From the sequence record DRR378314_658: a DNA stretch of 36,623 nucleotides; one strand, given 5' to 3'. Shown piece by piece: positions 4,027-32,755 of the stretch; the first letter of the stretch is position 1, and every line of letters starts with the position of its first letter. The position numbers and the translations under genes were made by a program. The notes under the pieces were generated by a model. It saw only the letters and a program-made list of their open reading frames with translations. It was not told the origin of the DNA and ran no database searches.

Positions 4027-5428
4027 CACTGCAACCAAGCAAAAAAGCTTCACTGACTGTCGTGGCGTGCCGGTCTCTTACCCGGATACAAAAGCCATTG
4101 AAGACCTGGAACGCGCAATCATCATGTCGCTGTCCTTTCGGGGTGATGCGATAGCTGAGATAAACAAGGTTCTCAACGAGCATCCAGATTTCATCATGGG
4201 TTGGCTCTTCAAGGCGGGTTGGCTGACGCAATCCATGGAGACTCGTATTTACGACCTCATGGTCAAATCACTTGGTGAGGCGGAGAAGCGGTTCAAATCG
4301 GCGAATGACCGAGAAATAGGTCACTACGAGGCGGTCAGGGCCTGGGTGAATGGTGATTTCTTCGGTGCTGTCCAGAAATGGGAAGCGGTGCTCGTCAAAT
4401 ACCCCAGGGACCTTCTCGCGATGGAGCTTGTCCACTACGCGGACGTTCTACTAGGCGACATCGCAGGACAACGCGATGTGGTCGCGCGGTCGTCGACACT
4501 CTGGGATGAAAGCGTTCCAGGGTATGAATTCGTACTAGGCTTCTATGCCTTCGGGCTTGAGGAAAACCGTGACTTTTCTCATGCCGAACAATTGGCGCGT
4601 CAGGCTTTGGCTATTCGTCCCGATCATCCATATGCCGTGCATGCCGTTGCCCATGTAATGGAGATGAGGGGGCGTCAGACGGGTGGTGTGCGCTTTATGA
4701 ACGAGCGTGCCAATAAATGGGGCACGTCTAACTTTGCCAATCATCTTTGGTGGCATACGGCGCTTTATCACCTTGATATCGAACAATATGACAAGGTGTA
4801 TAACATCTTCGACACCCATCTGGATTCACGCCAAAAGGATGGCAATAAATACGAAGAGCTGGACGCCTCTGCCCTGCTATGGCGGATCAACCTGGTGGGA
4901 CAAGACTCCGGCGACCGCTGGAAACATCTTGCCGACAAGTGGGAGCCCGCCGCGCAGGACACGCTTTATGCCTTCAACGACGTCCATGCGATGTTGACCT
5001 TTGTATCGGACGACCGTGTAGACGCTCAAAATGAGCTTTTGTCCGCCAATGAGCGCTACATGGAAAGCGCATCGGACGCCAATGTCGCCATGAGCCGTGA
5101 GATCGGGATGCCCTTCTGTCTGGCCATGCGGGATTTCAAGAACGAGCACTATGGTGACTGCGTGGATCGGCTCTTGCCCGTGCGTTACATGACCCACCGT
5201 CTCGGCGGTTCTTTTGCGCAACGTGATATCATCGGCTGGACCCTGCTCGAAGCTGCACTGCGCGCACGCCGCTTTGACTTGGCGCTGGCGCTGGCGAATG
5301 AGCGGACTGCGCTGAAACCCACCTCGGCCCAGAATTGGCGCGCCGTAGCGCGGGCCTTCAAAGGGCTGGGGGATAGCTCAAACGCGGACCGGGCCACCGC
5401 CAAGGCGCAATCCCTAATCCACGCATGA
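4010..5428 (+). CDS. TTC38-like tetratricopeptide-repeat protein
   Basis: YAFGLEE, AVHAVAHVMEM-GR, HLWWHTAL, DASALLWR, FNDVHA, GGS-AQRD motifs typical of the TTC38 family; SD GGAAGGA before ATG 4010/4013. Confidence 0.85.
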   Translation: MMAASNTATKQKSFTDCRGVPVSYPDTKAIEDLERAIIMSLSFRGDAIAEINKVLNEHPDFIMGWLFKAGWLTQSMETRIYDLMVKSLGEAEKRFKSANDREIGHYEAVRAWVNGDFFGAVQKWEAVLVKYPRDLLAMELVHYADVLLGDIAGQRDVVARSSTLWDESVPGYEFVLGFYAFGLEENRDFSHAEQLARQALAIRPDHPYAVHAVAHVMEMRGRQTGGVRFMNERANKWGTSNFANHLWWHTALYHLDIEQYDKVYNIFDTHLDSRQKDGNKYEELDASALLWRINLVGQDSGDRWKHLADKWEPAAQDTLYAFNDVHAMLTFVSDDRVDAQNELLSANERYMESASDANVAMSREIGMPFCLAMRDFKNEHYGDCVDRLLPVRYMTHRLGGSFAQRDIIGWTLLEAALRARRFDLALALANERTALKPTSAQNWRAVARAFKGLGDSSNADRATAKAQSLIHA

Positions 5429-6648
5429 CGGCACCTGATCATAAGCCCGCTGCACGTCTGGCGCATGTTCGTCCCTCGATGATCCTCGGCCTTGTGCAGA
5501 AGGCACGCCAATTGGCCAGCGAGGGGCATCCGGTCATTGAACTTGGCATCGGTGAGCCTGACTTCACGACGCCCGATCACATCATACAAGCTGCGATTGA
5601 GGCGATCGAGCGCGACGAGACGCGCTATACCATCGTTCTCGGCACCGTGCCGATGCGTGAGGCCATCGCCGCCAAGCTGAAACGCGAGAATGATCTGGAT
5701 TGTGATCTGGCGGGCATCACCGTGGGCGGCGGCTGCAAGAGCATTATTTTCAACGCTATGATGGCGACCGCCAGCCCCGGCGATGAGGTGATTATACCAG
5801 CACCCTACTGATCCTCTTACCCCGATATTGTTGCTATGGCCGAAGGCGTCCCGGTCGTGGTGGATTGCCCGCAAAGTCAGCGGTTCCTGATCTCGCCTGC
5901 GCAATTGGCGAAGGCGATCACGCCGCACACTCGTTGGCTCGTGTTGAACTCACCCAGCAACCCAACCGGCGGTGTCTACAGCGCCGAGCATCTGGAAAGG
6001 CTGGCAAAAGTCCTGCGCGCGCATCCCCATGTCGCGATCCTGAGCGATGATATCTATGAACATCTGATGTTTAACGGGCATCGCTTTGCCTCCATCCTCA
6101 ATGTCGCCCCTGATCTGAAAGACCGGGTGCTGATCGTGAATGGTGTGTCCAAGGTTTTTGCCATGACAGGCTGGCGCCTGGGCTACGCGGCGGGGCCGTC
6201 GCAGATCATCAAGCAGATGAACGTGGTTCAGGGGCAGAGCCTGACACATGCCTGCTCGATCTCACAGGCTGCAGGTATTGCCGCGCTGAGTGGTCCGACA
6301 GGTTTCTTGGCAACGCGTTCGGCAAGCTTCCAAAAGCGACGCGATATTGTTGTTGATGCCTTGAACGTCGCCCAGGGTATCAGCTGCATTCGTCCTGAAG
6401 GCGCGTTCTATGTCTATCCCGATTGCAGCGGCGTGATCGGAAAAATGACTCCGGCTGGGCGCGTGATCACGTCTGATATCGAATTTTGCACCCACCTTTT
6501 GGAAGATCATTATGTCTCTGCCGTGCCAGGCGCGGCATTTGGCCTCTCACCACATCTGCGCATATCAACAGCAGCATCTGAAGAGAACTTGCGCGAGGCA
6601 TGTGCGCGCATTGCGGCAGCTTGCGCAGACCTGAAGGAGGCCTCGTGA
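5425..6648 (+). pseudogene. Class I PLP aminotransferase (aspartate aminotransferase-like) interrupted by an in-frame TGA at 5809-5811
   Basis: ORFs 5425-5811 and 5836-6648 share one frame and read PAPY*SSYPDIV where the family has PAPYW-SYP; GEPDF, NSPSNPTG, SDDIY, SK-FAMTGWRLGY intact. Confidence 0.88.
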
Positions 6649-8701: not shown

Positions 8702-8727
8702 TGAGCGGGCCTCTCAGGGCCCGCTCA
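8702..8727. terminator. GC-rich hairpin between convergent genes
   Basis: TGAGCGGGCC-TCTCAG-GGCCCGCTCA, perfect 10-bp stem; no clear U-tract. Confidence 0.55.
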
Positions 8728-8791
8728 ATGACCCAAGCCTGGGTCACGATCTATCTCCCTGTCAATTTCGCGGGTGTTTTCCTTCTCGTCG
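8724..8791 (+). repeat. Diverged 68-bp direct repeat, left copy (partner 15284-15351)
   Basis: Ungapped alignment, 52/68 identical by manual count. Confidence 0.75.
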
Positions 8792-10647
8792 CCGCGATCC
8801 CGCTCTGCATCATGCAGGAAAGCCAGAAGACGCATGTTGAATTCATCAGGTTTGTTGAAAAACGGCGCATGTTTGCCACCCGGAATATCCTGGGGGATGC
8901 CCCGCCACAGGTTTCCATAGCGCAGACGCGCGATGTAATCGTGGTTCAGGAACGGGTCATCGCTTCCACTCAAGAGTGCGAAAGGAAATTTGCCTTGGCT
9001 GAGCATGCGCATCTGCCTTGGCCAGTCGATGATGCCCAGCTTACCAATCATATACAGCCGTGCCCGACCGTCGGTTCGACGCAAATTACGATGGAGGAAG
9101 GCAGAGTCTTCGGATACCGGTGCGGTCGCGCTGTTCCCAAAATCGGATGCCTCTTGTCGTGAAAAGTACTGTTTACTCGCCAGCACAAGATGGGAGTCAG
9201 GGTTGTAGCCCCGTCCGAAATCAATCGGTACCTGATTGAGGGGCGGGGTTCCGGCAATTGCCAAGGCCTGCACCTCGACATTCGCCCGCGCAGCCAGCTC
9301 AAGGCCCACATACCCGCCAAGCGACCATCCAATTACGCGGACATCCGCCACATTGCTGTCCTCCAGAACGGCCTCTGCAATCTCGGCATAGGCGGCAATG
9401 TTGTAGGCTGTTTCCGGATCACCATTCGACGACACACCATGCCCGGGAAAATCAAAGGAGATCACGCGGTACATGTCGCGAAAGGCGTGGAATTGTTTGT
9501 AAAATGCTTCTTTACAGGCAGAGTTACCATGCAGGAACAACAGCGCGGGTTTCCCTTTGTCACCGGTATCTGCGATGGCAATCAATCCATGCCGTGTTTC
9601 GATGAAGCGTTCTTTAGCGTTCAAACGATCTTCCCGCGCCCGGACCTCGCGTCTACGCCAGCGGGCCAAAAGGGATGTGCGCAGCGCATCTACGGCTTCA
9701 CGGAGTTCTTGCACCGCAGCCCAAAGACCACCGGGATAGAACACCACAACAAGAATAATGGCTGAAGCAATGATGATGTTTTGCCACGCACCAAAGCCAG
9801 CTAGCCATTCGGAGAGCACTGAAATGACAAAGGCAGCAATTACAGGCCCCCAGATAGTGCCGGTTCCGCCGACCAGCAGGATCGACAGCAACACCGTCAA
9901 AAACCCGATGCCAAACGCATCCGGCGAAGCGACCCGCAGGTAGGCCGCGTAAAATGCACCGGCCATCCCGGTGAAAACGGCACTTGCCATCAATGTCAGC
10001 GCGCGCGTTCGCGCCTCGGATACGCCACGGGCAATAGCGTAGTATTTGTTGTCCCGCAGCGCCACAATGGCCCGGCCAAGGCGCGAGCGTGTGAGCAGAT
10101 ACAGAAATGCCAGGTTCGCCACCAGCAATCCCAACCCCACAAAATAATATCCGATCCGTCCATCCTTGGACAAACGATAGTCGCCGATTTTCAAGGTCGG
10201 CAGCGTCACCATGCCCGAGGTTCCGCCGGTAACATCAGACCACGAAATCACAATAAAATAGATCAATTGGCTGAGCGCGATGGTCACAAGGATCACGTAA
10301 ATGCCGTCCAGCCGCAGCACAGGAAGAGAGATCAGTAGCGCAACCAGTGCGGCAGTGCCGCCGCCCGCAAGGATCGACAGCCACGGCGAAAACCCCAGTG
10401 TCTTCGCCAGAATGGAATAGGTGTAGATGCCGACAGCAAACAGGCCCACATGGGCAAAGTTAAATAGGCCACCGTAGCCCAGACTCAGATCCCAGCTTGT
10501 TGCAACGATGGCAAAGACAAAAGCCAGGATGATCACATGCCGGAAATAGGTAGCCTCGAACACAAACGGATAAGCGATCAGCGCGGCCAGAGCGATCAGC
10601 AGGGGCACAAGGCCTTGCGTCTTGTGAAGCGGGGGGTCGTACCGCAT
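8725..10647 (-). CDS. LivM-type ABC permease fused to a C-terminal alpha/beta-hydrolase (AidH-like, candidate AHL lactonase)
   Basis: N-terminal part: LSLGYGGLFNFAH, LRLDGIY, TGGTSG, SRLGRAIVALRDN, VGGTGTIWGP. C-terminal part (about 9615-8800): FLHGNS, DFPGHG, GWSLGG, GTPP, RTDGRAR, GSDDPF, GNLW-G, KHAPF. One uninterrupted frame. Confidence 0.9.
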   Translation of the reverse strand: MRYDPPLHKTQGLVPLLIALAALIAYPFVFEATYFRHVIILAFVFAIVATSWDLSLGYGGLFNFAHVGLFAVGIYTYSILAKTLGFSPWLSILAGGGTAALVALLISLPVLRLDGIYVILVTIALSQLIYFIVISWSDVTGGTSGMVTLPTLKIGDYRLSKDGRIGYYFVGLGLLVANLAFLYLLTRSRLGRAIVALRDNKYYAIARGVSEARTRALTLMASAVFTGMAGAFYAAYLRVASPDAFGIGFLTVLLSILLVGGTGTIWGPVIAAFVISVLSEWLAGFGAWQNIIIASAIILVVVFYPGGLWAAVQELREAVDALRTSLLARWRRREVRAREDRLNAKERFIETRHGLIAIADTGDKGKPALLFLHGNSACKEAFYKQFHAFRDMYRVISFDFPGHGVSSNGDPETAYNIAAYAEIAEAVLEDSNVADVRVIGWSLGGYVGLELAARANVEVQALAIAGTPPLNQVPIDFGRGYNPDSHLVLASKQYFSRQEASDFGNSATAPVSEDSAFLHRNLRRTDGRARLYMIGKLGIIDWPRQMRMLSQGKFPFALLSGSDDPFLNHDYIARLRYGNLWRGIPQDIPGGKHAPFFNKPDEFNMRLLAFLHDAERDRGDEKENTREIDREIDRDPGLGH

Positions 10648-10648
10648 A

Positions 10649-11536
10649 TCAGAGCGTCCTTTGATGGTTGCCAAGCAACCCTTCGGGCTTGAGCAGCAGC
10701 ACAACAATCATGGTTATAAACAGCACCGCGGGTGCCCAGTAGAGACCCAAAACGTAGATTGAAAACGCTTCCAGCATGCCGATGATAAAGGCGGCATAAA
10801 GTGGGCTGGAGAACCGCGCGACCCCACCAAAAATCACCACGATCAGAGCTTTCATAAGCGGCTCCGTACCCATCTCAGGGTTCATGAAACGGATTGTGCC
10901 CACGAATACACCAGCCAGGCCCGCCGTCGCAGCCGACAGGCCGAAGGCAATGGCGAAATAAAGCTGCACGTTCAACCCCAGGAGCTCGGCCGCCTCGCGG
11001 TTCTGCGATACCGCCCGCATAATGCGTCCGGGTCGCGCATAGCGCAGAAATAGTCCGAGCCCCAGCAAGATCGCCAGAACCAGCGCCAGAAGGATAATCT
11101 CGCTTGTGGCCAGGCTGATTTGGCCCAAGGCAACCTCTCCGCTGCCCAGAGACGGAATTTGCTTTGACCGCGGCCCCCAGATCAACAGCAGCCCATTTTC
11201 CAGAATGGCTGACGCTGCCAAGGTTGTGATAACCGAGATCAGGACCACATCCGCGCGCCGCTCGAAGGGTTTGACCAGCAAAAAATACATCAAGGCGCCG
11301 ACGGCAAACATCACTGCCAAGGTCAGCAGGATTGCCGGAAAGAGCGGCAAGCCCCAAGCATCCACGCTTGAAAACTGCCAGGCGATATAGGCCCCAAGCG
11401 CAATAAACGCCCCATGTGCGAAATTGAAAATGCCAAGTGTCGTCCAGACCAACGACAGCCCGGTCGCCATCAGCGCATAGAGCGCACCCAGGACAATGCC
11501 ACCTTGCAGGACTGAAGAAAGTGTTGCTGCATCCAT
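10649..11536 (-). CDS. livH: LivH-type branched-chain amino acid-family ABC permease
   Basis: GALYALMATGLSLVW, FNFAHG, GRIMRAVSQNREAAELLG, KPEGLLG. Confidence 0.92.
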   Translation of the reverse strand: MDAATLSSVLQGGIVLGALYALMATGLSLVWTTLGIFNFAHGAFIALGAYIAWQFSSVDAWGLPLFPAILLTLAVMFAVGALMYFLLVKPFERRADVVLISVITTLAASAILENGLLLIWGPRSKQIPSLGSGEVALGQISLATSEIILLALVLAILLGLGLFLRYARPGRIMRAVSQNREAAELLGLNVQLYFAIAFGLSAATAGLAGVFVGTIRFMNPEMGTEPLMKALIVVIFGGVARFSSPLYAAFIIGMLEAFSIYVLGLYWAPAVLFITMIVVLLLKPEGLLGNHQRTL

Positions 11537-12315
11537 CAGTGATATTCCCCGAACAAGAGCGCCATCAACCCGTCATGGTCTGGCATTTCGGCATGGGTCA
11601 TGCGGCCTGAAATACGCCCGTGGTCGAACAGATAAAGCGTGTCGATGATCTGTTCGAGAAACCCAACATCTTGATCAATCAGAATGATTGGCATTCCAGT
11701 TTTTCGCACTGTCAGAATTGCATCGCACAGTTCCTGCCGGATTTTTGGTGACAGACCAAGCGTGGGTTCATCAAGGATCAGCAGGCGCGGCGCTGAGAGC
11801 AAGCCAGCGGCAACCGAGACCATCTGCCGCTCTCCTCCAGACAGGAATCGGATCTTGTGATCGCCCCGTTCTGCGACGCACGGGAATAGCCCGCGGACCT
11901 GTTCCAAGCTCCAACCCTCTCGCCCTTTGGCCGCTCCGGAAGAGATTGACAGCGTTTCGCCAACTGTCAGTTCGGGGAACAAGAGGTTGCCTTGCTGAAC
12001 GTGGATCAAACCGGCGCGCGCCACGGTCTTGGGGTCCATACGCCTGCGCGTGACCGCGTCATAGTTGAAGTTGCGCCATTTGCGGCTGCCCCGTTCGCCC
12101 ACGCGATTCATCAGCTCACCGTGAAATCGGATGGAGCCTGACCATGGGTCGATCAGGCCACTCAGCGTTTTCAGGAACGTGGTCTTACCGTGACCATTCG
12201 GGCCAAAAATGCCGATGCTCTCACCTTTGTGCAAAACCAGATCAATGTCCTGAAATATCTGCACAGGATCATATCCGCCTGAAAGGTTTTCGACCTGAAG
12301 CGCGGGATCAGACAT
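11536..12315 (-). CDS. livF: LivF-type ABC ATPase with a basic insertion of about 20 aa
   Basis: Walker A GPNGHGKTT, LSGGERQM, LLILDEPTLGLSP; ATG 12315 overlaps the livG end. Confidence 0.9.
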   Translation of the reverse strand: MSDPALQVENLSGGYDPVQIFQDIDLVLHKGESIGIFGPNGHGKTTFLKTLSGLIDPWSGSIRFHGELMNRVGERGSRKWRNFNYDAVTRRRMDPKTVARAGLIHVQQGNLLFPELTVGETLSISSGAAKGREGWSLEQVRGLFPCVAERGDHKIRFLSGGERQMVSVAAGLLSAPRLLILDEPTLGLSPKIRQELCDAILTVRKTGMPIILIDQDVGFLEQIIDTLYLFDHGRISGRMTHAEMPDHDGLMALLFGEYH

Positions 12316-13045
12316 ATGCACCCCCCAGATAGGCTTCGACCACCTCCGGGTCTTTGATGACATCACCCGGCAGCCCCTGCGCAATGACCTGCCCCTGATC
12401 GAGAACCAGAAGCGTGTCTGACACCTCCATCAGCAGCGAGAGCACATGTTCGATGAGCACAATCGCGATCCCCTCTCCGCGTATGGCTAGGATCACCTCT
12501 TTCATGTTGTCAATTTCGGGCCCGGTCAGGCTGGAGGCCGGTTCGTCCATCAACAGCACACGTGGCTTTAGTGCCAGTGAGGAGGCGATCATCAACAACT
12601 TGCGGTAATAAACGGGTAAATTGCCCGCCAACATGTTGTGCATTGTGGGCGGATACCCGACTAGGTCGAGCATCTTTTCCGCCCGCGCGACTTTCTGCGG
12701 AAAGCCCAAAGCCCGCGCCTGGCTTTCGACAGCAACCAGCACATTGTCTATCGCGCTGAGGGCGGAAAAGACGTTTTCGCGCTGAAAGGTGCGTCCAATA
12801 CCGGCAAGAGCAATAGCATCGGCACGCAACCTGTGCATCTCGCGCCCTTCGAGCGTCACTGATCCAGCGGTAGCCCCGAAGGGGACGCGCGTAATGATAT
12901 TGAACAGCGTGCTCTTGCCACTGCCGTTGGGGCCAGCGATCCCGAAAATTTGCCCCGACGTCACATCAAAGCTCACATCCTGAACGGCTTGCAAACCGCC
13001 AAAACGCTTGGACATGCCGCGTACGGATAGGATGGGTTCTGTCAT
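12308..13045 (-). CDS. livG: LivG-type ABC ATPase
   Basis: KRFGGLQAV, GPNGSGKST, GIGRTFQ, LLMDEP, IEH, C-terminal VVEAYLG. Confidence 0.92.
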   Translation of the reverse strand: MTEPILSVRGMSKRFGGLQAVQDVSFDVTSGQIFGIAGPNGSGKSTLFNIITRVPFGATAGSVTLEGREMHRLRADAIALAGIGRTFQRENVFSALSAIDNVLVAVESQARALGFPQKVARAEKMLDLVGYPPTMHNMLAGNLPVYYRKLLMIASSLALKPRVLLMDEPASSLTGPEIDNMKEVILAIRGEGIAIVLIEHVLSLLMEVSDTLLVLDQGQVIAQGLPGDVIKDPEVVEAYLGGAYV

Positions 13046-13062
13046 GTCTGGAAAATCCTGTT

Positions 13063-13097
13063 TGCGCCCGCCGGACCAAAAGAGGTGGCGGGGCGCA
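13063..13097 (-). other. Imperfect GC-rich stem-loop after the binding-protein gene (possible mRNA stabiliser or attenuator)
   Basis: TGCGCCCGCC ... GGCGGGGCGCA in the SBP-livG spacer. Confidence 0.4.
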
Positions 13098-13103
13098 CTG
13101 CTT

Positions 13104-14345
13104 TTATTTTTCAGAAATCCAGGGCGGCAGGCGGAATTCACCATTGGCATAGATATCCGGGCCAACCATGACGCGCTCGCCATCCCAAAGCTGCCAGAAC
13201 GACACCGGGATGTAGTCATTGCTTTGCAGCGCTACATGGGTTTCAGGATCAAACTCCACATTGCCCGCGGCTGTTGCGACCTTGGTTTCGCCAATGGCCA
13301 CACCGATGCCGTCGTGATCGGTCGGATCGCCCACTTTCTCCAATGCAGTGAAGTACATGTTGGTCATCTCATAGAGGCCGACACCGTAAGCACCGGAATC
13401 GAAACCAAACTTATCGCGATACTGCTGCATCAGTTCCTTTCCACGTGGCCATTTTGGGGAATCCAGCGGTCCGTTGATCAGGTTGTAGAGAACACCGTTG
13501 GACTGTTCGCCGGTCAGCTCGACAAATTCCGGCACCGATGGCGCATATTGCAGGAACATCAGGCTATCGGTCGGGTTTTCCAGAAACTGTTTTAGGAACA
13601 GTGCCGAATTGCCGGGGATGTAATCCGTGTTGATTACCAGATCGGGGTTCGCCTGGTTCACCTTTGCAAGGATCACTTTCCAATCGCTCACCTCGCCAAA
13701 CGGGACCAATTCGTCAACAACAACATCCCAACCACCTTCGGAGAAACTGATTTTCATCCCCTCGGAAATCGTCTTGGAATAAGGGTTGTCCGAACTGATG
13801 ATCGCGACGGTTTTGCCGTCGATGCTGACCTTTCCGGCGTCCGCAAGCTCTTGAACCATTGGCAAAACGTCGGTCTCATAGCCCTTGAACGACGCCGTGT
13901 AGGACCAGCAACAGTTGTATGCATCTGGGTCCTGGCTGACGATGGCGGCAAATCCCGGACTGGGGCCTGCAGCAATGTAGGGCATGTTCTCTTCGGCCAT
14001 CAGATCGACCTCGAACATAGAAAGAGACGCGTAGCCCGTCAGGATCACCTCGACCCCGTCGGTCCCAAGCAGGCGCTCAACCGCGCTGGAGACGTTGGCC
14101 GCAGAGTGGTCCTTGACGTCCGCCACTTCGATTTCGAATGTGTAGCCCGCGACACCGCCCTTGGCATTCGCTTCTTCTACCGCCCATTCCACACCGCGAA
14201 TGAATTCCTCACCATCCGAGGCGGTCGCGCCGGTCAAAGGTGCCAGGACACCGATTTTTGTTATTTCCGCCGAGGCAGCCCCCAGCGTCATCAAAGTGAA
14301 GCAGGTCGCCAAACCCGTTGATCGAAGCAGTTGGCTCTGCGCCAT
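13104..14345 (-). CDS. LivJ/K-type (type I periplasmic) ABC substrate-binding protein
   Basis: Signal peptide ending AASA, KIGVLAPLTG, EANAKGGVAG; SD GGGAGG before ATG 14345. Confidence 0.9.
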   Translation of the reverse strand: MAQSQLLRSTGLATCFTLMTLGAASAEITKIGVLAPLTGATASDGEEFIRGVEWAVEEANAKGGVAGYTFEIEVADVKDHSAANVSSAVERLLGTDGVEVILTGYASLSMFEVDLMAEENMPYIAAGPSPGFAAIVSQDPDAYNCCWSYTASFKGYETDVLPMVQELADAGKVSIDGKTVAIISSDNPYSKTISEGMKISFSEGGWDVVVDELVPFGEVSDWKVILAKVNQANPDLVINTDYIPGNSALFLKQFLENPTDSLMFLQYAPSVPEFVELTGEQSNGVLYNLINGPLDSPKWPRGKELMQQYRDKFGFDSGAYGVGLYEMTNMYFTALEKVGDPTDHDGIGVAIGETKVATAAGNVEFDPETHVALQSNDYIPVSFWQLWDGERVMVGPDIYANGEFRLPPWISEK

Positions 14346-14446
14346 TCGCTTACCCTCCCATTTTGAGTTGTTTTCGTTTGACGCATCACGGTGCGACGGA
14401 GGCGGGAAGTTCACAACTGGCAAATCTTGCAATATGGATACCTTTA

Positions 14447-14468
14447 CCCCTACACTTTCACGTAGGGG
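14447..14468. promoter_or_regulatory. Lux-box-shaped palindrome in the divergent promoter region
   Basis: CCCCTAC-ACTTTCAC-GTAGGGG; the inner 20 bp fit NNCT-N12-AGNN. Confidence 0.6.
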
Positions 14469-14471
14469 GAT

Positions 14472-14487
14472 GTCTGCCGGGGCAGAC
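14472..14487. promoter_or_regulatory. Second short palindrome upstream of luxR
   Basis: GTCTGCC-GG-GGCAGAC. Confidence 0.35.
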
Positions 14488-14506: not shown

Positions 14507-15232
14507 ATGCCGAAGCTTGGTGAAATCAACGACTACGATGCGCCTTGGCCCAAAATGTGGGAAGGTTTTGAGGCCGGAATCGTCGACTTTCTGAAAAAAT
14601 TTGACCTGAGCTACTACAGCTATGTTCAGATCCAGAATTCGCAAACGCAACCGATCTCGGGCACGATTGATTTCAAAGCGAACTACGAGCCTGAATGGAT
14701 CAGTCGATACTGCAACCGCAGATACGATCAGGTTGATCCAGTCTGCCACTTGGCCAAGCGCGCGCGATCCCCGTTTTGTTGGGGCACCAAACAGTTTCTT
14801 TCCGCCTTTCCAAAACAACAAAGGCAGGTGTTCTGGGAAGGTCGTGACTATGGCATCTACTACGGTCTCTCGATTCCTGTGCGTGGTATAGACGGGCAAG
14901 TTAGTGTTGTTTCGTTCACAGGGAAAAGCAGAAAATCCTTGGGCGACGTGATCCACGACCAAGGGTCCAAGCTTCACGTCGCAGCCTATCAGATTTGCGA
15001 CTATCTAACGCCAAAATTGGAGCCGGAAACACTCCAGGCATCTTTGCTAACAATTCGCGAACGAGAGTGCCTTATCTGGGTATCACAGGGACTTACCAGC
15101 GAAGAAATCGCTGAACGTATTTTTTTGTCCGTGTCGACGGTTAACTATCATTTAGGCAATGTCGTACGTAAACTTGACGCCAGGAACCGGCATCATGCCG
15201 CTCTGTTAGCCTTGTCTCGGCGTCTCATCTGA
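14507..15232 (+). CDS. LuxR-family quorum-sensing regulator (autoinducer-binding domain + HTH), no luxI in the window
   Basis: NYEPEWISRY, VDPV, PFCW, YGLSIP (TraR W57/Y61/D70/P71/W85/G113 equivalents); LTIRERECLIWVSQGLTSEEIA HTH; start codon uncertain. Confidence 0.9.
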   Translation: MPKLGEINDYDAPWPKMWEGFEAGIVDFLKKFDLSYYSYVQIQNSQTQPISGTIDFKANYEPEWISRYCNRRYDQVDPVCHLAKRARSPFCWGTKQFLSAFPKQQRQVFWEGRDYGIYYGLSIPVRGIDGQVSVVSFTGKSRKSLGDVIHDQGSKLHVAAYQICDYLTPKLEPETLQASLLTIRERECLIWVSQGLTSEEIAERIFLSVSTVNYHLGNVVRKLDARNRHHAALLALSRRLI

Positions 15233-15283
15233 CCAGTTTCGAGAATTGGTAGGATCCTTCTGTTGTTTGATTTTGCCCTACAA

Positions 15284-15351
15284 CTCAATGACTGAAGCTT
15301 GGATCACCATCTATTTCGCCGTCGGTCTCACGCTTGTTTTCCTCCTCCTCG
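15284..15351 (+). repeat. Diverged 68-bp direct repeat, right copy (partner 8724-8791)
   Basis: CTCAATGACTGAAGCTTGGATCACCATCTAT... versus CTCAATGACCCAAGCCTGGGTCACGATCTAT... Confidence 0.75.
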
Positions 15352-15409
15352 GTCCTGCGCCACAACATACAAAACACGCTGTTCGTGCTTTGAGCGCCGT
15401 GCTTCACGT

Positions 15410-15740
15410 TCACCCGTACAGACTGACGCGCCCAGAAAACCTGATCAACAATGTTGATGCCCTTTTCTTCAACAAGGACAAAAAAAAGGCAGAATTGTCG
15501 AGCCACTGTGGGTCGGCGTCAGGGGTCTGTTGCGCATACGGATTGAAGCCTTCGTGTAGTGATCGAAGCTTCCAAGGCCCCGTCCCGGCAAATGCTTCTA
15601 TGAGGGCGGCTCGAAGTGCTTCCAGCATTTAGTCTGTTGCGGGGCCGTCTTAGAGCGCTGCCATGATGCGAAGCTGATCTAAGAAACTGTCTGCGTTCAC
15701 CGGGGGGACTCTAAACGATACCTGAAAGCAATCTAGGGTG
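15410..15740 (-). pseudogene. Possible decayed gene remnant, family not recognised
   Basis: One frame reads ...DSFLDQLRIMAAL*DGPATD*MLEALRAALIEAFAGTGPWKLRSLHEGF... across two TAA codons; protein-like composition only. Confidence 0.3.
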
Positions 15741-15768
15741 GAAAAAGAACCTCGACAAATCAGGTAAA

Positions 15769-15915
15769 CAGACCTTCGTGCATAGGTGGCAAAATAGCGT
15801 TTTGTCCGCGATCCAGACGTCAACAAGGGCCCGATCTCGCGGCTGCAGCGAATGGCCGGTATGATGGGCCGCGGCGCAGCAGTTCGATCCAATGGGCAAC
15901 GGCAGCTTTGGGCCG
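15769..15915 (+). repeat. Cluster of degenerate intergenic repeats: sub-type C (15769-15809) and 65-bp sub-type B (15851-15915)
   Basis: C is 30/41 identical to 36559-36599; B (AATGGC...GCCGCGGCGCAGC...AACGGCAGCTTTGGGCCG) matches 18119-18183 and 23498-23562. Confidence 0.7.
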
Positions 15916-16062
15916 TTCTGCGTAGATAGTTCTTTGACAGTGCAGGGGCGTTGCTGTGGCTTCCCGGAGGTCTTCAAAGAGTCTAAAAGTGAGTTTGTTA
16001 CGAAACTTACAAACGTCTGTTTTTGGCGTGGTTATCCGTTACACGAACGCTATCCCAAACCA

Positions 16063-17949
16063 CTAAGACGCGTTTTCTGGAACTCCCAATGCTCGCAAAT
16101 CGTCTAGCCAGCGATTGTGGAACTCTTTGTCGGTGAACGGTGCAGTTTTTGCTTCTTCAATATCGTAGTCGGGATTGTCTGTTAGGAACTCGCCCATCAT
16201 GGTGCGCGCCTCGTCATCCCGCCCTAGCCGCAGCAAGATTGGAGCAAGGGTACGTCTGAGGCGATCCGGGACCCCGTTCATCTTCTCGATTGAAGCGAGC
16301 GCTCCTTCGTAGTCTTCCGCGAAGTACTGAGCCCAACCCAGATTCCAAAGATACCAATCTGGATGATGTGGATTGAGACGTATGGCAGCCTTCATCCGGT
16401 CAACGGCTTCATCTGCCCTTCCGCTGTAGATCAAAGGATCAATTGAATCGGCGAGTACCTGAGCGGAGTTCGGGTTTAAAGCAATCGCCTTCTCGTAAAG
16501 TGATGCGGCCTTCTCAAGATCGCCACTTTGCACCGTAATACTTGCCAAAACCTGATGAGCTTTGAAATTGAATGGCTCGAGCTTTATTGCCTTTCTGGCC
16601 ATTTCAAACGCGAGAGCCAAAGACTCTTCACGAGACGTAATTTCAGTCCACCCCCAGCGGTAGCCGAAGTTATGGGCCCAAGCGAGTTCGATGTATGCGC
16701 TGGCAAAATTAGGGTCGAGCTCGATTGCTTTCTGGCTCAGATCCATAGCAAGAATGTTGCCTTCTTTCGTGAATGTGAACGCCTGTTCCTGAGCGCGTTT
16801 GAAAAGCTCGTATGCATTCAAGTTGTCAGTGGGTTGGTGTTCTAACCGGTCATACTCGGCCAGGTCGATGTTCTCGTTGAGAGTCAGCGCGATCGTTCGC
16901 GTGACTTCGTCCTGGACATCAAATATATCCTCAAGACTGCGGTCGTAGCTGTCCGCCCAAAGATGTTTTCCGTTTGTTGCGTCTATCAATTGCGCTGTGA
17001 CCCGCAACTTGCCCCCTAATATTTGGACACTGCCCTCTACAATGTAGCGAACACCCAATTCCTCGGCCACCTGTTGTACCTTTACCGGCTGATCTTTGTA
17101 GGTAAATGTCGAATTGCGGGAGATTACGAAGAAATCGACAAATCGGGAGAGCGCGGTGATGATGTTTTCGCTGAAGCTGTCGCTTAAGTAGTCATGCTTC
17201 GGGTCGCTGTTCAGATTGTCGAACGCCATTACGGCAATAGACGGTTTGCCGGTTAGCGGGACAGCGGCGGGTTCAGCCGCACCGGGTGAATGGCTCGAAG
17301 TGTCCCAAGGTTGCCACAAGAGCATCCCCCCGATTGCAACTGCGACCGCGACCACTATAGCGACCAAACAAGAGCGACGTGCAGGCGCCACAGGTCGGGT
17401 GAAGGCGGAAACGAGAGCCGTTGCTTTGTCATCAAGCAACAGGCTGAAAACACGTATTGGTTCTGCAATGTTCTTGACCTCGTGAAGTCCGAGGTCTTCG
17501 ATGTTGAGGTCGAGTTTGTCTTTTACCTGATCATATACGCTGGCCGCCATATAGATGCCATCAGGCGCAGCAAGACCTTCCAGTCGCGACGCGACGTTTA
17601 CTCCGTCTCCGTAGATGTCATCGTTCTCCACGACGACGTCGCCGACGTTAATCCCAATTCGGTAGTGTATTTGGTTCTTTTCTAAGAAGTCCTTGTTTTT
17701 AACTCCGACGTAATGTTGAAACTCTATCGCGCATTGTACCGCTTCAACTGCGCTGGCAAATTCGATCAATAAACCATCGCCCATCAATTTGACGATGCGC
17801 CCTTTTCGGGCTGAAACGATAGGTTCTATCAGTTCTTCGCGATGTGCCTTAATGGACGCCAGTGTGCCTGTTTCATCTTCTCTGATGAGGCGGCTATATC
17901 CCACTACGTCTGCAGCAACTATCGCCGTGAGGCGTCGTTCCAATGCCAA
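16063..17949 (-). CDS. Class III adenylate cyclase with a TM helix, TolB-N-like domain and TPR repeats
   Basis: ADVVGYS, KLMGDG, RIGINVGDV, DIYGDGVNVASRLE; hydrophobic helix LVAIVVAVAVAIGGMLLW; PSIAVMAFDNL; TPR pattern; TTG start with SD GGGAGG. Confidence 0.92.
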   Translation of the reverse strand: MALERRLTAIVAADVVGYSRLIREDETGTLASIKAHREELIEPIVSARKGRIVKLMGDGLLIEFASAVEAVQCAIEFQHYVGVKNKDFLEKNQIHYRIGINVGDVVVENDDIYGDGVNVASRLEGLAAPDGIYMAASVYDQVKDKLDLNIEDLGLHEVKNIAEPIRVFSLLLDDKATALVSAFTRPVAPARRSCLVAIVVAVAVAIGGMLLWQPWDTSSHSPGAAEPAAVPLTGKPSIAVMAFDNLNSDPKHDYLSDSFSENIITALSRFVDFFVISRNSTFTYKDQPVKVQQVAEELGVRYIVEGSVQILGGKLRVTAQLIDATNGKHLWADSYDRSLEDIFDVQDEVTRTIALTLNENIDLAEYDRLEHQPTDNLNAYELFKRAQEQAFTFTKEGNILAMDLSQKAIELDPNFASAYIELAWAHNFGYRWGWTEITSREESLALAFEMARKAIKLEPFNFKAHQVLASITVQSGDLEKAASLYEKAIALNPNSAQVLADSIDPLIYSGRADEAVDRMKAAIRLNPHHPDWYLWNLGWAQYFAEDYEGALASIEKMNGVPDRLRRTLAPILLRLGRDDEARTMMGEFLTDNPDYDIEEAKTAPFTDKEFHNRWLDDLRALGVPENAS

Positions 17950-28314: not shown

Positions 28315-29940
28315 ATGTTATGGGATTCCACCTTCATGCCACCACTTTCACCCTCGCCAAATGCATATGGCTATCCGTTGCTGATTAAACACTTGCTGGC
28401 CGGATCCCAGCTCGCGTCAGCCAGCCAAGAGATCGTCAGCGGCACCGAAATGCGGTTGAGCTATGCGGACTTGGGCAAACGCGTGCGCCAACTTGCCAAT
28501 TCTTTAAAGGCGAGCGGGATACATGAGGGTATGCGCGTTGGTGTCATGGATTGGGATACGCACCGTTATCTTGAGTGTTTTTTCGCGATCCCGATGATGG
28601 GCGGGTCCCTTTTCACGATCAACGTGCGTCTGTCTCCTGCTCAGGTCCTTTATACGATCAACCATGGACAACCGGATCTGATCATCGTGCACCGCGATTT
28701 CATGCCGCTCATTGAGGGTATCAAATCGGGCTTTGATCGGGACATCACCATCGTGCCGATTGGAGACGGAGAAGGATATGAAGAGTGGATAGGCAAAGCC
28801 CCAGGCAGCTTTGACTTCCCGGACTTCGATGAAAACCAAACGGCAACCTTGTTTTATACAACCGGGACCACCGGCAATCCCAAGGGGGTGAGCTATTCAC
28901 ATCGGCAGTTGGTCCTTCACACATTGAGCTTGATCGCAGGTTTCGGCGCATGGCCCGGGAATGCCGGATTTCATCGCGGCGACGTCTACATGCCGCTGAC
29001 GCCCTTGTTTCACGTCCACGGCTGGGGATTTCCATATGCCGCAACGATGCTGGGGCTGCGTCAGGTCTATCCCGGTCGATATGACCCTGACACAATCTTG
29101 CGATTGATTGCAGACGAAAACGTCACCTTTTCACACTGCGTGCCCACGGTTCTGTCAATGGTGCTCGACCATCCGGGCTGCCCACAAATTGACCTGGACA
29201 GATGGAAAGTGATCATTGGCGGGGCCGCTTTGCCGCGAGGCCTGCAGGACCGCGCCGCGGCGGCAGGCATATCCTTACATGCGGCCTATGGGATGTCCGA
29301 AACCTGTCCGTTTCTGACGGTGGCCGATTTGTCCAGCAATGACCCCGAGATGCAGGCGCAAACCGGCTTTCCCGGCCCTCTTGTCGACCTTCGTGTTGTG
29401 ACACCGGATATGCAGGACGTCCCACATGACGGCGAAACAACCGGCGAAGTTGTTGCTCGGGCTCCCTGGTTGACACAAGGCTATCTGGATAATGCGCAAG
29501 CCTCGGATGAGCTTTGGGACGGTGGGTATCTGCATACCGGGGATGTTGGGTATATCCGCGAGAATGGATCGTTGCAGATTACTGACCGCCTCAAGGATGT
29601 GATTAAGACCGGCGGCGAATGGATATCCTCACTGGCACTGGAAAACATAGCATCGTCTTGCAGCGGCGTTGAGGACGTCGCAGCAATCGGGCTGCCGCAC
29701 GCGAAATGGGGCGAAAGGCCAGTGTTGGTCGCTCAAGCCGCAAAGGATGCCGACCCGGATCTTGTGCGCTTGAGAGTCATGGAAGAAATCCAGTCGTGGG
29801 TTGACGCAGGCGAGATCTCAAAATGGGCAGTTCCAGACGAATTAATCTTTGTCGACCGCCTACCTAAAACCAGCGTCGGCAAGCTCGACAAGAAACTCGT
29901 GCGGCAAGATATTTCAACGCGCTCGGACCTAAAATCATGA
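28315..29940 (+). CDS. Medium-chain acyl-CoA ligase (AlkK/DmdB-related)
   Basis: YTTGTTGNPKG, PLFHVHGWG, AYGMSETCP, LHTGD, DRLKDVIKTGGEWISS, KTSVGK; start may be 28336. Confidence 0.92.
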   Translation: MLWDSTFMPPLSPSPNAYGYPLLIKHLLAGSQLASASQEIVSGTEMRLSYADLGKRVRQLANSLKASGIHEGMRVGVMDWDTHRYLECFFAIPMMGGSLFTINVRLSPAQVLYTINHGQPDLIIVHRDFMPLIEGIKSGFDRDITIVPIGDGEGYEEWIGKAPGSFDFPDFDENQTATLFYTTGTTGNPKGVSYSHRQLVLHTLSLIAGFGAWPGNAGFHRGDVYMPLTPLFHVHGWGFPYAATMLGLRQVYPGRYDPDTILRLIADENVTFSHCVPTVLSMVLDHPGCPQIDLDRWKVIIGGAALPRGLQDRAAAAGISLHAAYGMSETCPFLTVADLSSNDPEMQAQTGFPGPLVDLRVVTPDMQDVPHDGETTGEVVARAPWLTQGYLDNAQASDELWDGGYLHTGDVGYIRENGSLQITDRLKDVIKTGGEWISSLALENIASSCSGVEDVAAIGLPHAKWGERPVLVAQAAKDADPDLVRLRVMEEIQSWVDAGEISKWAVPDELIFVDRLPKTSVGKLDKKLVRQDISTRSDLKS

Positions 29941-30623
29941 CAGACAAACAACGTCGTATTCAGGCGCTTATTCAATCGATTGTCACCTATCTGCAGGCTC
30001 ACAGAGCTGCCACGCGCGGCGTTGATCTGACGTTGGACAAGCTGGCAGCCATGGATCTGTCCGATGAGAAGCTCATTGACTTACCTCCCCAAGGAACCCG
30101 GCATGATGAGGTTCTGAAGAACGCTGTCGCCGGGATTGCAGCCCCGGAATTGCAGGAAATCGCAGGCTGTCTGAAAGCGGCCAAGGATGATCTGATCTGG
30201 CGCGAAGACAACGCCCAATTCTATCCCCCCGGTGCCGATTTGGGAGAGGGATACACAAGGTGCAACCTGCATACTCTGCTGATCGGGCCGGATGCATGTG
30301 GATATCACCATCTCGATTTCAACCTTGGCATTTTCATGCTGGGACCAAGGACGCTGTATCGCGACCACAACCACGACGCGCCAGAACTGTACCTGAACCT
30401 TTCCGAGAAATCTGGTTGGCGGTTTGGCACCCGTGACTGGCAGGATTATCCGGCTGGATCACTTATCTGGAACGCGGCGGGCGATCCCCACGCCACCCGG
30501 GTCTATGACCAGCCATTCATCTCCGTCTTTGTCTGGCTCGAGAACGTGAATTCACCCTGCAATGTAATCCACTTCGACGATTGGGCAGAGATCGAACAAG
30601 ATCTTGCCAAACAGTCCAATTGA
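29937..30623 (+). CDS. Cupin of the DMSP-lyase (DddQ/DddL-like) family
   Basis: GIFMLGP-TLYRDHNHDAPELYLNLS (Y-x2-H-x-H-x3-E-x-Y) and HATRV-x2-PFISVFVW; ATGA overlap with the ligase. Confidence 0.75.
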   Translation: MTDKQRRIQALIQSIVTYLQAHRAATRGVDLTLDKLAAMDLSDEKLIDLPPQGTRHDEVLKNAVAGIAAPELQEIAGCLKAAKDDLIWREDNAQFYPPGADLGEGYTRCNLHTLLIGPDACGYHHLDFNLGIFMLGPRTLYRDHNHDAPELYLNLSEKSGWRFGTRDWQDYPAGSLIWNAAGDPHATRVYDQPFISVFVWLENVNSPCNVIHFDDWAEIEQDLAKQSN

Positions 30624-30634
30624 GGTTTCCAAAC

Positions 30635-32755
30635 ATGATTTCCATTAAACATACCGAGGGTGTCGCTTTCATTGAGCTGAATACCCCGCCAGTGAACGCT
30701 CTTGGTCTCAAGATGCGACTGGCGCTTTCCTCGGCCATCCACGAGTTGGACGCCGATGAACAGGTCAAAGCCATCGTTCTATGTTCGGCTCTGCCGCTCT
30801 TTTGCGGCGGCGCTGACATCGTCGAGTTCCGTACCGGGGCAGTTTGGGACAAGCCGGACTTGCCAGACCTGTGTGAAACGATTGAAACCAGCAAGAAACC
30901 CATTATCGTCGCGATAGCAGGTCCCGCGATGGGTGGTGCGCTGGAGATCGCGCTTGCCTGTGATTACCGTGTCGCCACGCCGGATGCCGTGATGGGCCTA
31001 CCTGAGATCAAACTGGGGCTGCTGCCTGGTGCCGGAGGCACCCAGCGACTACCCCGGATTGCCGGGCTGGAAGCGGCAACGCAAATGATCCTCTCGGGTG
31101 ATCCCGTGAAAGGCGAATATGCCCTGTCTTGTGGGCTGGTCGACGCACTATTTGAGAACGACCAGGATTTTCGCGCGCATGTTTTGGGTTTCGCCACCCG
31201 TGTCAGCCATGAGGGCGATCCGAAACGCGGTTGCATGGATATGACCGTCACACACCCTGATCCGAAGGGATATCTGACGGGTTTCCGAGACCAGATAGCG
31301 CACACGTCCAAAAACCTTGTCGCCCCTGAACGCTGCTTGGTATCCATCGAGGCCGCGTGCGAATTGCCGCTGGCCGAGGGGTTGGCACAAGAGAAGGCAG
31401 GTTTCGCTGAACTGCTCGACACACCTCAATCGCGCGCGGGGCGGCATCTGTTCTTCGCAGAGCGTGAATGCACCAAGGTTCCCGGCGTTACCCGTGCTGA
31501 CCAACCACGTAGCATTTCATCGGTCGCCGTGATCGGTGCCGGAACGATGGGGCGCGGCATTGCCATCGCCTTTCTGCAGGCGGGATATCCGGTCACGCTT
31601 CTGGAAACCACACAAACTGCGCTGGAACAGGGGCTGGAAAAGGTCCGGGAGCATTTCCAGCGTGCGGCTCAAAAAGGGCGGCTCAGTGCCGATCGGGCAG
31701 AGGCAATCGCCGCCAACGCCACCGGGACGCTCAGCTATGCAGACCTTGCGAAGGCTGACCTGATCATTGAAGCGGCGTTTGAAAGCATGAATGTCAAACA
31801 CCAAATTTTCGCGAGCCTAGACCAGCACGCCAAACCTGGCGCGATACTGGCCTCAAACACATCGACATTGGATCTTGATGAAATCGCCGCGGTCACGTCC
31901 CGCCCGGAGGATGTGATTGGTCTCCATTTCTTCAGCCCGGCCAATGTCATGCGCTTGCTGGAGGTGGTGCGCGGCGCCAAGACCGCTCCCGATGTCATTG
32001 CAACGGCAATCACGGTCGCAAAGAAGATCCGGAAGCTCCCTGTCACGGTTGGCGTGTGCTACGGCTTTGTTGGAAACCGGATGCTGGAACCATACTTCCG
32101 CGAAGGATCTCGTCTGCTTCTTGAGGGGGTGACGCCGAAACAGGTGGATGACGTCCTTGAAGGCTTCGGCATGGCCATGGGCATTCATGCGATGGCAGAT
32201 CTGGCCGGAGTCGATGTGGGCGCACGCGTGCGTCAGGAACGGCGTAGTGAAATCGCGCATGACCCGACATACCAGGCTGTGCAGGACAGGTTGTTTGAAC
32301 TGGGCCGACTGGGTCAGAAAACCGGGCGTGGAAGCTATGTCTACGAGGGACGGACACGGGTCGAAGACCCTGAGATAGTTCAAATCAGTTCCGATCTGGC
32401 GGACCTGCATGGTGTGAAGCGCAGGGACATCGACGATCAGGAAATCCTTGAACGGTGTCTGTTTCCCCTGATCAACGAGGGCTTCTTGATCCTTGAAGAG
32501 GGCATTGCAACGCGCCCGGGTGATTGCGACCTGATCTGGACCAACGGCTATGGCTTTCCGAACTGGCGCGGCGGCCCAATGCACTATGCCGACGAGTTTG
32601 GATTAAGCCAGATTCTGGAACGCATGAACCACTATCGGCAGTCGCTTGGTGCCTATGGTGAGATGTGGTTCACGCCTGCGCCTTTGCTGGAAGAACTCGC
32701 AACCTCGTGCGTAACACTTGCCGCGCATTTTGATGCCAAAAAGGAAAAATCATGA
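30635..32755 (+). CDS. Bifunctional enoyl-CoA hydratase / 3-hydroxyacyl-CoA dehydrogenase
   Basis: [65 protein letters not shown]. Confidence 0.95.

Follow-up and report, generated by a model that had tools for sequence, protein, structure and literature searches.

A permease-hydrolase fusion in a six-gene cassette

The window analysed here, a stretch of 36,623 nucleotides from sequence record DRR378314_658, carries a gene in which a LivM-type permease and an alpha/beta-hydrolase domain are joined in a single reading frame of 640 amino acids. The hydrolase domain resembles AidH, a lactonase that acts on acyl-homoserine lactones (AHLs). The fusion gene belongs to a cassette of six genes, arranged in the order luxR (divergent), binding protein, LivG, LivF, LivH and LivM::hydrolase (Table 1). 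Pfam analysis showed that a complete set of parts for an importer of the LIV/HAAT type, namely two BPD_transp_2 permeases, two ATPases and a Peripla_BP_6 binding protein, is contained in one operon.

A first-pass annotation, made from the letters of the window, had reported a 640-residue frame with a full LivM domain, a charged helical linker and a hydrolase with a complete Ser-Asp-His set, without giving a strand. Each of these elements was borne out by translation of the open reading frames (ORFs), Pfam analysis and structure prediction. The frame lies on the minus strand, with its ATG at 10647-10645 and its stop codon at 8727-8725; BPD_transp_2 covers residues 38-300 (E 4e-39), and Abhydrolase_1 and Abhydrolase_6 match residues 367-604 (E 2e-20 and 2e-18). 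The stretch that had been quoted as the linker corresponds to residues 314-342 and is predicted to lie inside a single helix (308-342), and the three motifs given for the catalytic set, GWSLGG (440), GSDDPF (561) and KHAPF (592), were all located.

The longest ORF of the fusion gene begins further upstream, at TTG 10707. We prefer ATG 10647 as the start codon because the TTG start overlaps the upstream livH-like gene, because the ATG, one base past the LivH stop codon, has an AAAGGA ribosome-binding site in front of it, and because residues M1, Y3 and P5 of the resulting protein are invariant among 48 aligned homologues. Homologues of the LivG-type ATPase cover ~80% of its longest ORF.

Table 1. 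Positions in the window of the cassette genes, of the parts of the fusion gene and of a conserved intergenic element
Feature	Position	Strand	Basis and remarks
livM::aidH-like fusion gene	8725..10647	-	640 aa; last gene of the operon; ORF and translation, Pfam BPD_transp_2 + Abhydrolase
Acidic C-terminal tail, residues 613-640, and stop codon	8725..8811	-	Poorly conserved
AidH-like alpha/beta-hydrolase domain, residues 343-612	8812..9621	-	phmmer and Foldseek matches to AidH
His593 codon	8869-8871	-	
Asp564 codon	8956-8958	-	
Ser442 codon	9322-9324	-	
Arg-rich helical linker, residues 308-342, predicted cytoplasmic	9622..9726	-	Single helix in the AlphaFold (AF2) model; placed and sized as the linker in L011
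LivM-type permease domain, residues 1-307	9727..10647	-	Pfam; ten predicted membrane helices; coupling helices 189-206
LivH-type permease partner	10649..11536	-	Pfam BPD_transp_2, E 4e-34
LivF-type ATPase	11536..12384	-	Pfam ABC_tran; NCBIfam UrtE/LivF-like below cut-offs; longest ORF, start uncertain
LivG-type ATPase	12308..13219	-	Pfam ABC_tran + BCA_ABC_TP_C; true start probably at about residue 59 of the longest ORF
Periplasmic binding protein, Peripla_BP_6, N-terminal signal peptide	13104..14345	-	Pfam E 2e-41; ATG 14345 after GGGAGGG
Conserved 21-bp element, candidate operator/promoter element	14414..14434	.	About 68 bp before the binding-protein ATG
LuxR-family regulator, 241 aa, divergent from the operon, no adjacent luxI	14507..15232	+	Pfam Autoind_bind + GerE

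The fusion is conserved in a family of related proteins

A search with the full-length protein listed 120 clusters of homologues, 60-90% identical, from Rhodobacterales, Rhizobiales, Rhodospirillales and unclassified Pseudomonadota. Both Pfam domains were present in 120 of these 120 clusters; 119 were at least 600 amino acids long and were kept for residue counts, and one cluster of 552 amino acids was dropped. The first-pass annotation had left room for an artefact, a private stop loss or an assembly error; a frameshift is a third way in which two separate genes might have been joined. The relatives, however, are fused rather than split, and the explanation was rejected on the counts just given. 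The fusion is also one open frame in 30 further loci from many genera, and its linker is partly conserved in the alignment of 48 homologues; the only broken copy that was found, at locus L042, lies in two frames. We regard an artefact as extremely improbable, and it is nearly certain that the fusion and the cassette are real.

The relation of the fused proteins to other hydrolases was examined in searches with the hydrolase domain alone. Against proteins of similar length, the domain matched stand-alone proteins of ~270 amino acids at 34-43% identity, and the matches of at least 53% identity in the same search were fragments from short contigs or truncated fusions. Against a 50%-identity representative library (1.84 billion), 130 proteins matched at E 1e-30 or better, a list in which AidH, with 173 bits, would rank about fifteenth. 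Among the long hits that were scanned, P0353 (587 amino acids) is a tandem hydrolase, and P0340, P0243 and P0351 show hydrolase domains only. Because P0035, of 629 amino acids, is the only full-length LivM fusion among the best 150 representatives, the LivM::hydrolase proteins are, by these searches, one tight subfamily within a moderately large AidH-like family. In databases the fusion protein is named 'alpha/beta fold hydrolase' or 'permease/pimeloyl-ACP methyl ester carboxylesterase'.

A maximum-likelihood tree was built from 41 fused sequences (40 of the 119 homologues and the window) and 44 of 88 stand-alone AidH-like proteins; the tree is unrooted and AidH is not in it. All fused domains fell on one side of a single branch, with a Shimodaira-Hasegawa-like approximate likelihood ratio test (SH-aLRT) value of 100. 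This grouping is consistent with a single fusion event.

The hydrolase takes the place of an ATPase

An AlphaFold model of the fusion protein, based on an alignment of 48 rows, had a mean predicted local distance difference test score (pLDDT) of 80. The permease half was modelled with helices at residues 13-29, 33-56, 65-83, 88-110, 116-135, 165-186, 211-237, 242-259, 266-283 and 287-303. The coupling helices are short and lie just past helix 6, within a loop (187-243) that holds nine Lys or Arg residues. Along the linker helix pLDDT climbs from 60 to 94; in the C-terminal tail it is 58-61, and the alignment consensus of the tail has no majority residue. When the permease was compared with the NCBIfam equivalog models, it reached 111 bits with LivM (cut-off 366) and 77 bits with UrtC (cut-off 296), missing both. 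Because these scores are far under the cut-offs, the substrate of this LIV-type importer cannot be read from its family.

A PDB sequence search with the permease half gave no match at E 0.01 or better, and the topology proposed here rests for that reason on a related fusion, on helix parity and on charge. The related fusion is encoded at locus L011, where a protein of 612 amino acids joins BPD_transp_2 (residues 32-295) to ABC_tran (residues 359-519). Fusions of LivM to ATPase domains, which the first-pass annotation had given as the normal kind, thus do exist, and in this one the ATPase stands in the place of the hydrolase: the hydrolase of the window protein begins where the ATPase begins in L011, and the linkers are equal in position and length. 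Because the ATPase of L011 must be cytoplasmic, the hydrolase, in the same place, should be cytoplasmic as well. Consistent with this, helix parity in the model would put both termini of the fusion protein inside the cell, and the ten helices, the Lys/Arg-rich loop and the Arg-rich linker all point to a hydrolase at a cytoplasmic C-terminus.

The hydrolase domain is a homologue of AidH

AidH is a metal-independent AHL lactonase with an alpha/beta-hydrolase fold, from Ochrobactrum sp. (PDB 4g5x; accessible text of PMC3532132). The last 301 residues of the fusion protein were used as a phmmer query against all PDB chains. The top matches were 4g5x/4g9e, 4g8c/4g9g and 4g8b/4g8d, with E values from 8.6e-50 to 3.1e-49, and entries 4g5x, 4g8b, 4g8c and 4g9e are titled 'N-acyl homoserine lactonase AidH'. 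The alignment spans residues 8-269 of the 279 residues of AidH, cap domain included; the runner-up among solved structures had an E value of 9e-12. The likeness goes well past what chance would give. A Foldseek comparison of the AlphaFold model with AidH gave 34% identity, a template modelling (TM) score of 0.88-0.89 (target-normalised) and a root-mean-square deviation of 2.3 Å. Targets other than AidH had TM scores of at most 0.78, the next target having an E value of 6e-11. The closest characterised homologue of the hydrolase is, by both comparisons, a lactonase. The likeness to AidH had first been noted as a series of motifs in a fixed order (ET.HG.IA, HGNS, PGHG, GWSLGG, GTPP, RTDGRAR, GNLW.G and HAPF); in the phmmer alignment all eight are identical and stand in that order.

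The roles of AidH residues in catalysis, in binding of the lactone carbonyl and in the substrate tunnel were taken from the accessible text of PMC3532132. Its numbering is that of the PDB chain, as Leu103, His106, Phe138, Met144, Tyr160, Met188, Phe189 and Phe192 coincide. Residues conserved between AidH and the fusion protein are Asn33 (Asn375), Trp101 (Trp441), Ser102 (Ser442), Leu103 (Leu443), Met188 (Met533), Phe221 (Phe566) and His248 (His593), and the acid residue is changed from Glu219 to Asp564. Residue counts were made in the 119 fused homologues of at least 600 amino acids and in the 88 stand-alone AidH-like proteins. None of the 119 fused proteins departs from AidH at the positions of Ser102, His248, Asn33, Trp101 and Leu103, and Phe566 is kept in 118. 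At the acid position all 119 fused proteins have Asp, while the stand-alone proteins have Glu (50 of 88) or Asp (37 of 88).

Conservation and spread of the cassette

Thirty loci from named genomes were compared with the proteins of the window, with flanks of 10 kb where the contig allowed. All six genes were found in 28 of the 30, in unchanged order and orientation. One exception, L033, lies so near a contig end that only 1.1 kb of sequence is left upstream. In the other, L042 (10001-11909), the luxR, binding-protein, ATPase and LivH genes are not present beside the two-frame fusion gene, and its neighbours encode a glutathione transferase, a flavin oxidoreductase and a peptidase. Two further genomes, once extended, both showed the whole cassette. 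The cassette is therefore intact in 30 of the 30 loci that have an intact fusion gene and sufficient flank, and these belong to Rhodobacterales, Rhizobiales and Rhodospirillales.

Locus L042 comes from an alphaproteobacterial metagenome-assembled genome and could be either a decaying remnant or the product of a long-read indel error. An orphan of this kind fits a unit with mutually dependent parts, as a single case from a metagenome-assembled genome.

The surroundings of the cassette were compared by clustering of the ORFs of 21 loci. Only the six cassette genes, together with shadow ORFs on the opposite strand, were common to 20 or 21 loci, and no gene outside the cassette was common to more than 6 of the 21. 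The downstream cyclase, CoA-transferase and aminotransferase genes of the window recur only in L024, a 100%-identical Ruegeria record.

Within the genus of the window, a full-length fusion was found in only two of 25 genomes, G015 (L045) and G032 (L046). The G015 cassette is just 50% identical and resembles cassettes of the Rhizobiales type, which suggests that it and the window-type cassettes were acquired separately by horizontal transfer. Because the fusion occurs in so few genomes of the genus, because the G015 copy is Rhizobiales-like and because no flanks are conserved, the cassette looks like an accessory unit that moves horizontally. No compositional anomaly was found that marks the cassette.

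An AHL-type LuxR regulator and the intergenic region

Both domains of the regulator were recognized by Pfam (Autoind_bind, E 2e-22; GerE, E 7e-17). Its best solved relatives are QscR (3szt, E 4.8e-21) and TraR (1.8e-18), followed by RhlR, LasR, CviR and SdiA. Alignment with TraR showed that nine hallmark residues (W57, Y61, D70, P71, W85, G113, E178, L182 and G188, in TraR numbering) are present in the regulator, and none of the nine varies among 29 cassette LuxR proteins, a count that includes those of the window and of its twin L024. The list of nine residues is that of PMC4338825, in the accessible text of which their conservation is taken to indicate AHL binding, while LuxR solos that respond to plant signals carry W57M and Y61W. 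The regulator is thus predicted to be a canonical AHL-type LuxR protein that binds an AHL. The context of the cassette is absent from the 12 uncharacterised groups of LuxR solos described in the accessible text of PMC4338825, and its regulators may be among the 385 ungrouped solos of that paper.

AHL synthase genes were sought as Autoind_synth (luxI) matches. None was found among 31 ORFs of the window that were scanned, and of three in the nearest genome, G001, none lies on the cassette contig. Presence of luxI is mixed among cassette-bearing genomes, two of five, for which completeness is not given, having no Autoind_synth match.

The divergent intergenic regions, of 100-220 bp, were aligned. 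Across 13 Rhodobacterales loci the 21-bp element of Table 1 is the only block that is at least 80% conserved, and a similar 21-bp block is prominent in 11 Rhizobiales and other loci. Aligned without gaps, the two group consensus blocks agree at 14 of 21 positions, and each contains a dyad with the core GCAA...TTGC. They may represent two different elements. A strict pattern for the block was found in 6 of 29 regions and in 0 of 5800 shuffles, but the pattern is too narrow. No perfect inverted repeat of the lux-box kind was common to the 29 intergenic regions. Two perfect palindromes lie upstream of the luxR start in the window, at 14447-14468 (22 bp, with 7-bp arms) and 14472-14487 (16 bp); they occur in the window and L024 only, and not in the other 27 intergenic regions.

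Proposed import with hydrolysis, weighed against other explanations

We propose, as a tentative reading of these sequences, that the cassette carries out LuxR-gated import of an AHL-like lactone, which is ring-opened at the exit of the transporter and thereby trapped and silenced. In this scheme the LuxR protein would bind an AHL and the operon would be switched on; the binding protein would capture the lactone (an AHL or a closely related compound), which the transporter would pump inward. The lactonase, tethered by a rigid helix to the C-terminus of LivM, would then open the ring at the cytoplasmic exit and so convert a signal that can cross membranes into N-acyl-homoserine, an anion that is trapped and inactive. 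Because the ring-opened anion would be both trapped and inactive, uptake would be irreversible and cytoplasmic receptors would be spared. Tethering would be sensible because inward pumping of a permeant molecule is futile unless the molecule is converted at once to an impermeant anion. Transport-coupled hydrolysis had already been suggested in the first-pass annotation, and the suggestion is strengthened by the canonical AHL-type LuxR gene that the cassette always includes: the one constant neighbour of the importer encodes an AHL-type receptor.

Several observations weigh against this reading. We know of no binding protein of the Peripla_BP_6 family that binds an AHL, the best PDB match of the cassette binding protein (3h5l) has a generic name only, and short AHLs cross membranes unaided. 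In the intergenic region, the site came out on top in only 8 of 29 loci when matrices derived from one cassette group were applied to the other, for which reason the 21-bp block is called a candidate operator and no more. An identity of 34% to AidH is too low for a substrate to be transferred within the alpha/beta hydrolases. Further, the hydroxyl of AidH Tyr160 hydrogen-bonds the ring oxygen and is called key to catalysis (accessible text of PMC3532132); the window protein has Phe503 at this position. The position holds Tyr in 69, Phe in 48 and Leu in 2 of the 119 fused homologues, and Tyr in 59 and Phe in 25 of the 88 stand-alone proteins. Even close relatives differ here, with Phe in the window protein and its nearest relative and Tyr in most others of more than 65% identity. 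Other residues are also changed from AidH to the fusion protein: His106 to Tyr446, Phe138 to Tyr481, Met144 to Leu487, Phe189 to Ile534, Phe192 to Leu537 and Met77 to Ile417. Of these, two mark the fused clade and make its tunnel systematically different: position 446 holds Tyr in 117 of the 119 fused proteins, and position 481 holds Tyr or His, likewise in 117. Among the 88 stand-alone proteins the corresponding residues are His in 86 and Phe in 85. Ile534 and Leu537 are the commonest residues among the fused relatives. Because Tyr160 is replaced by Phe503, we class the hydrolase only as an AidH homologue, which probably works like AidH, and not as a proven AidH-type lactonase.

Lastly, the linkage to luxR equally fits quorum-regulated uptake of another ester. 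The importer would then bring in a nutrient – another ester, lactone or amide, such as an amino-acid ester, free homoserine lactone, a gamma-butyrolactone or an N-acyl amino acid – from which the hydrolase would free a usable product, and LuxR would only time expression by cell density or by the signals of neighbours. The low identity to AidH, the altered tunnel residues and the Phe at the Tyr160 position are all in keeping with such a role. So are the sub-threshold LivM and UrtC matches of the permease, the membership of the binding protein in a family that matches amino-acid, urea and aromatic-acid binders in the PDB, and the scores that the generic NCBIfam models PcaD, BioH, MenH and RutD also reach on the hydrolase domain. 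AidH is, however, ahead of every other solved hydrolase by ~38 orders of magnitude, and the residues that contact the lactone carbonyl (Asn33 and Leu103 positions) are conserved together with Trp101 and Phe221. Moreover, the canonical AHL-type LuxR protein is the only regulator ever found with the cassette, and no catabolic gene for another substrate is conserved beside it. Uptake of a nutrient, the chief rival to our proposal, appears to us somewhat unlikely.

It can also be supposed that the enzyme is a lactonase and that the transporter has nothing to do with its substrate. AHLs would diffuse into the cell, the transporter would import something unrelated, and the fusion would only hold the enzyme at the inner membrane face or set its stoichiometry. 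AHLs are membrane-permeant, and those with long chains above all would partition into the membrane and be met there. The similarity to AidH and the LuxR linkage agree with this account, which has a precedent for a lactonase within a transporter in QsdH, a resistance-nodulation-division (RND) pump (accessible text of PMC3466314). Anchoring alone, however, needs no complete importer of five co-conserved genes, as is seen in 30 of 30 intact loci, and the sole copy without transporter partners, at L042, is frameshifted. We consider this explanation improbable.

Our preference thus remains, tentatively, with LuxR-gated import and ring opening of an AHL-like lactone. A wider claim would make the cassette the first dedicated AHL uptake system, working by hydrolytic group translocation as an AHL counterpart of the Lsr system, and mobile among Alphaproteobacteria of marine and rhizosphere habitats, some of them strains that gave no AHL synthase match; this we put forward as a doubtful but possible extension. 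It is usually assumed that AHL signals enter cells passively, and the quenching enzymes known to us stand free of other proteins. An importer that is gated by a receptor and has a lactonase built in would, if confirmed, add active scavenging to AHL biology, with signal turnover as for autoinducer-2 (AI-2). It would also explain how bacteria without a synthase can profit from the signals of their neighbours, and would provide a natural example of a permeant solute trapped by hydrolysis at the exit of a transporter. The compactness of the six genes and their occurrence in cultured marine strains that are harmless make the hypothesis directly testable.

Other features of the window

Between the luxR stop codon and the next gene, ~830 bp (15233-16062) contain only ORFs of at most 128 amino acids, and the GC content of this interval, 0.51-0.52, is the lowest in that part of the window. 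The gene that follows (16063-17949, minus strand) encodes a protein of 628 amino acids that has an adenylate/guanylate cyclase domain at its N-terminus, a membrane segment, and TPR repeats at its C-terminus; the gene is not conserved beside the cassette in other loci.

On the opposite flank of the cassette, an aspartate-aminotransferase gene (5425-6648, plus strand) is interrupted by an in-frame TGA at 5809-5811. Its two ORFs share one frame and match Pfam positions 2-100 and 112-361, respectively. The TGA comes after Pro-Tyr, at a position where we take the aminotransferase family to have Trp, and is either a nonsense mutation or a base-call error.

A further group of genes (28315-33936, plus strand) encodes an AMP-binding acyl-CoA synthetase, a cupin of the dimethylsulphoniopropionate (DMSP)-lyase family (PF16867), a FadB-like hydratase/dehydrogenase and a thiolase, with a divergent LysR gene before them. 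It is probably a catabolic cluster for DMSP/acrylate or fatty acids, and is unlinked to the cassette in other genomes.

Comparison with known systems

A literature search found no paper linking AidH to a permease fusion and no title on the six-gene cassette. A paper on Ruegeria mobilis (PMC6333666) names a different lactonase, PrmL, and AidH and ATP-binding cassette (ABC) transporters are not mentioned in its accessible text. QsdH of Pseudoalteromonas byunsanensis has a quenching lactonase domain within a marine inner-membrane transporter protein, as is proposed for the fusion (accessible text of PMC3466314). In QsdH, however, the enzyme is a GDSL hydrolase of unrelated fold, is N-terminal and predicted to be periplasmic, and lies in a periplasmic loop of an RND efflux pump, not in an importer that depends on a binding protein. 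A LuxR linkage, which the cassette fusion has, is not reported for QsdH in that accessible text.

The transporter genes of the cassette are the set found in importers of the LivHMGF/LivJ (HAAT) type, including the BCA_ABC_TP_C tail on one ATPase. In LivM-ATPase fusions the extension of the permease is the ATPase itself, whereas in the cassette it is an enzyme, with each ATPase still encoded by a gene of its own. AidH and the fusion hydrolase have in common the whole fold with its cap, the GWSLGG elbow, the catalytic His, the HGNS oxyanion motif, and Trp101, Phe221 and Met188. AidH, however, is a free-standing soluble protein of ~270 amino acids with Glu as its acid residue, whereas the window domain stands behind a ten-helix permease, has Asp at this position and falls in a separate clade. 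The regulator shares Autoind_bind, GerE and the nine hallmarks with receptors of the QscR/TraR type and with LuxR solos.

In the Lsr system, AI-2 is taken up by LsrACDB, an ABC importer with a binding protein, modified by the cytoplasmic kinase LsrK and so trapped and removed, with the signal-responsive regulator LsrR alongside. The likeness of the cassette to Lsr is one of functional analogy only: the LsrC model gave 25 bits (cut-off 388) and the LsrA model ~100 (cut-off 586), and the two systems are not homologous. Lsr works by phosphorylation on another class of signal, whereas in the cassette trapping would be hydrolytic and the enzyme is fused to the permease.

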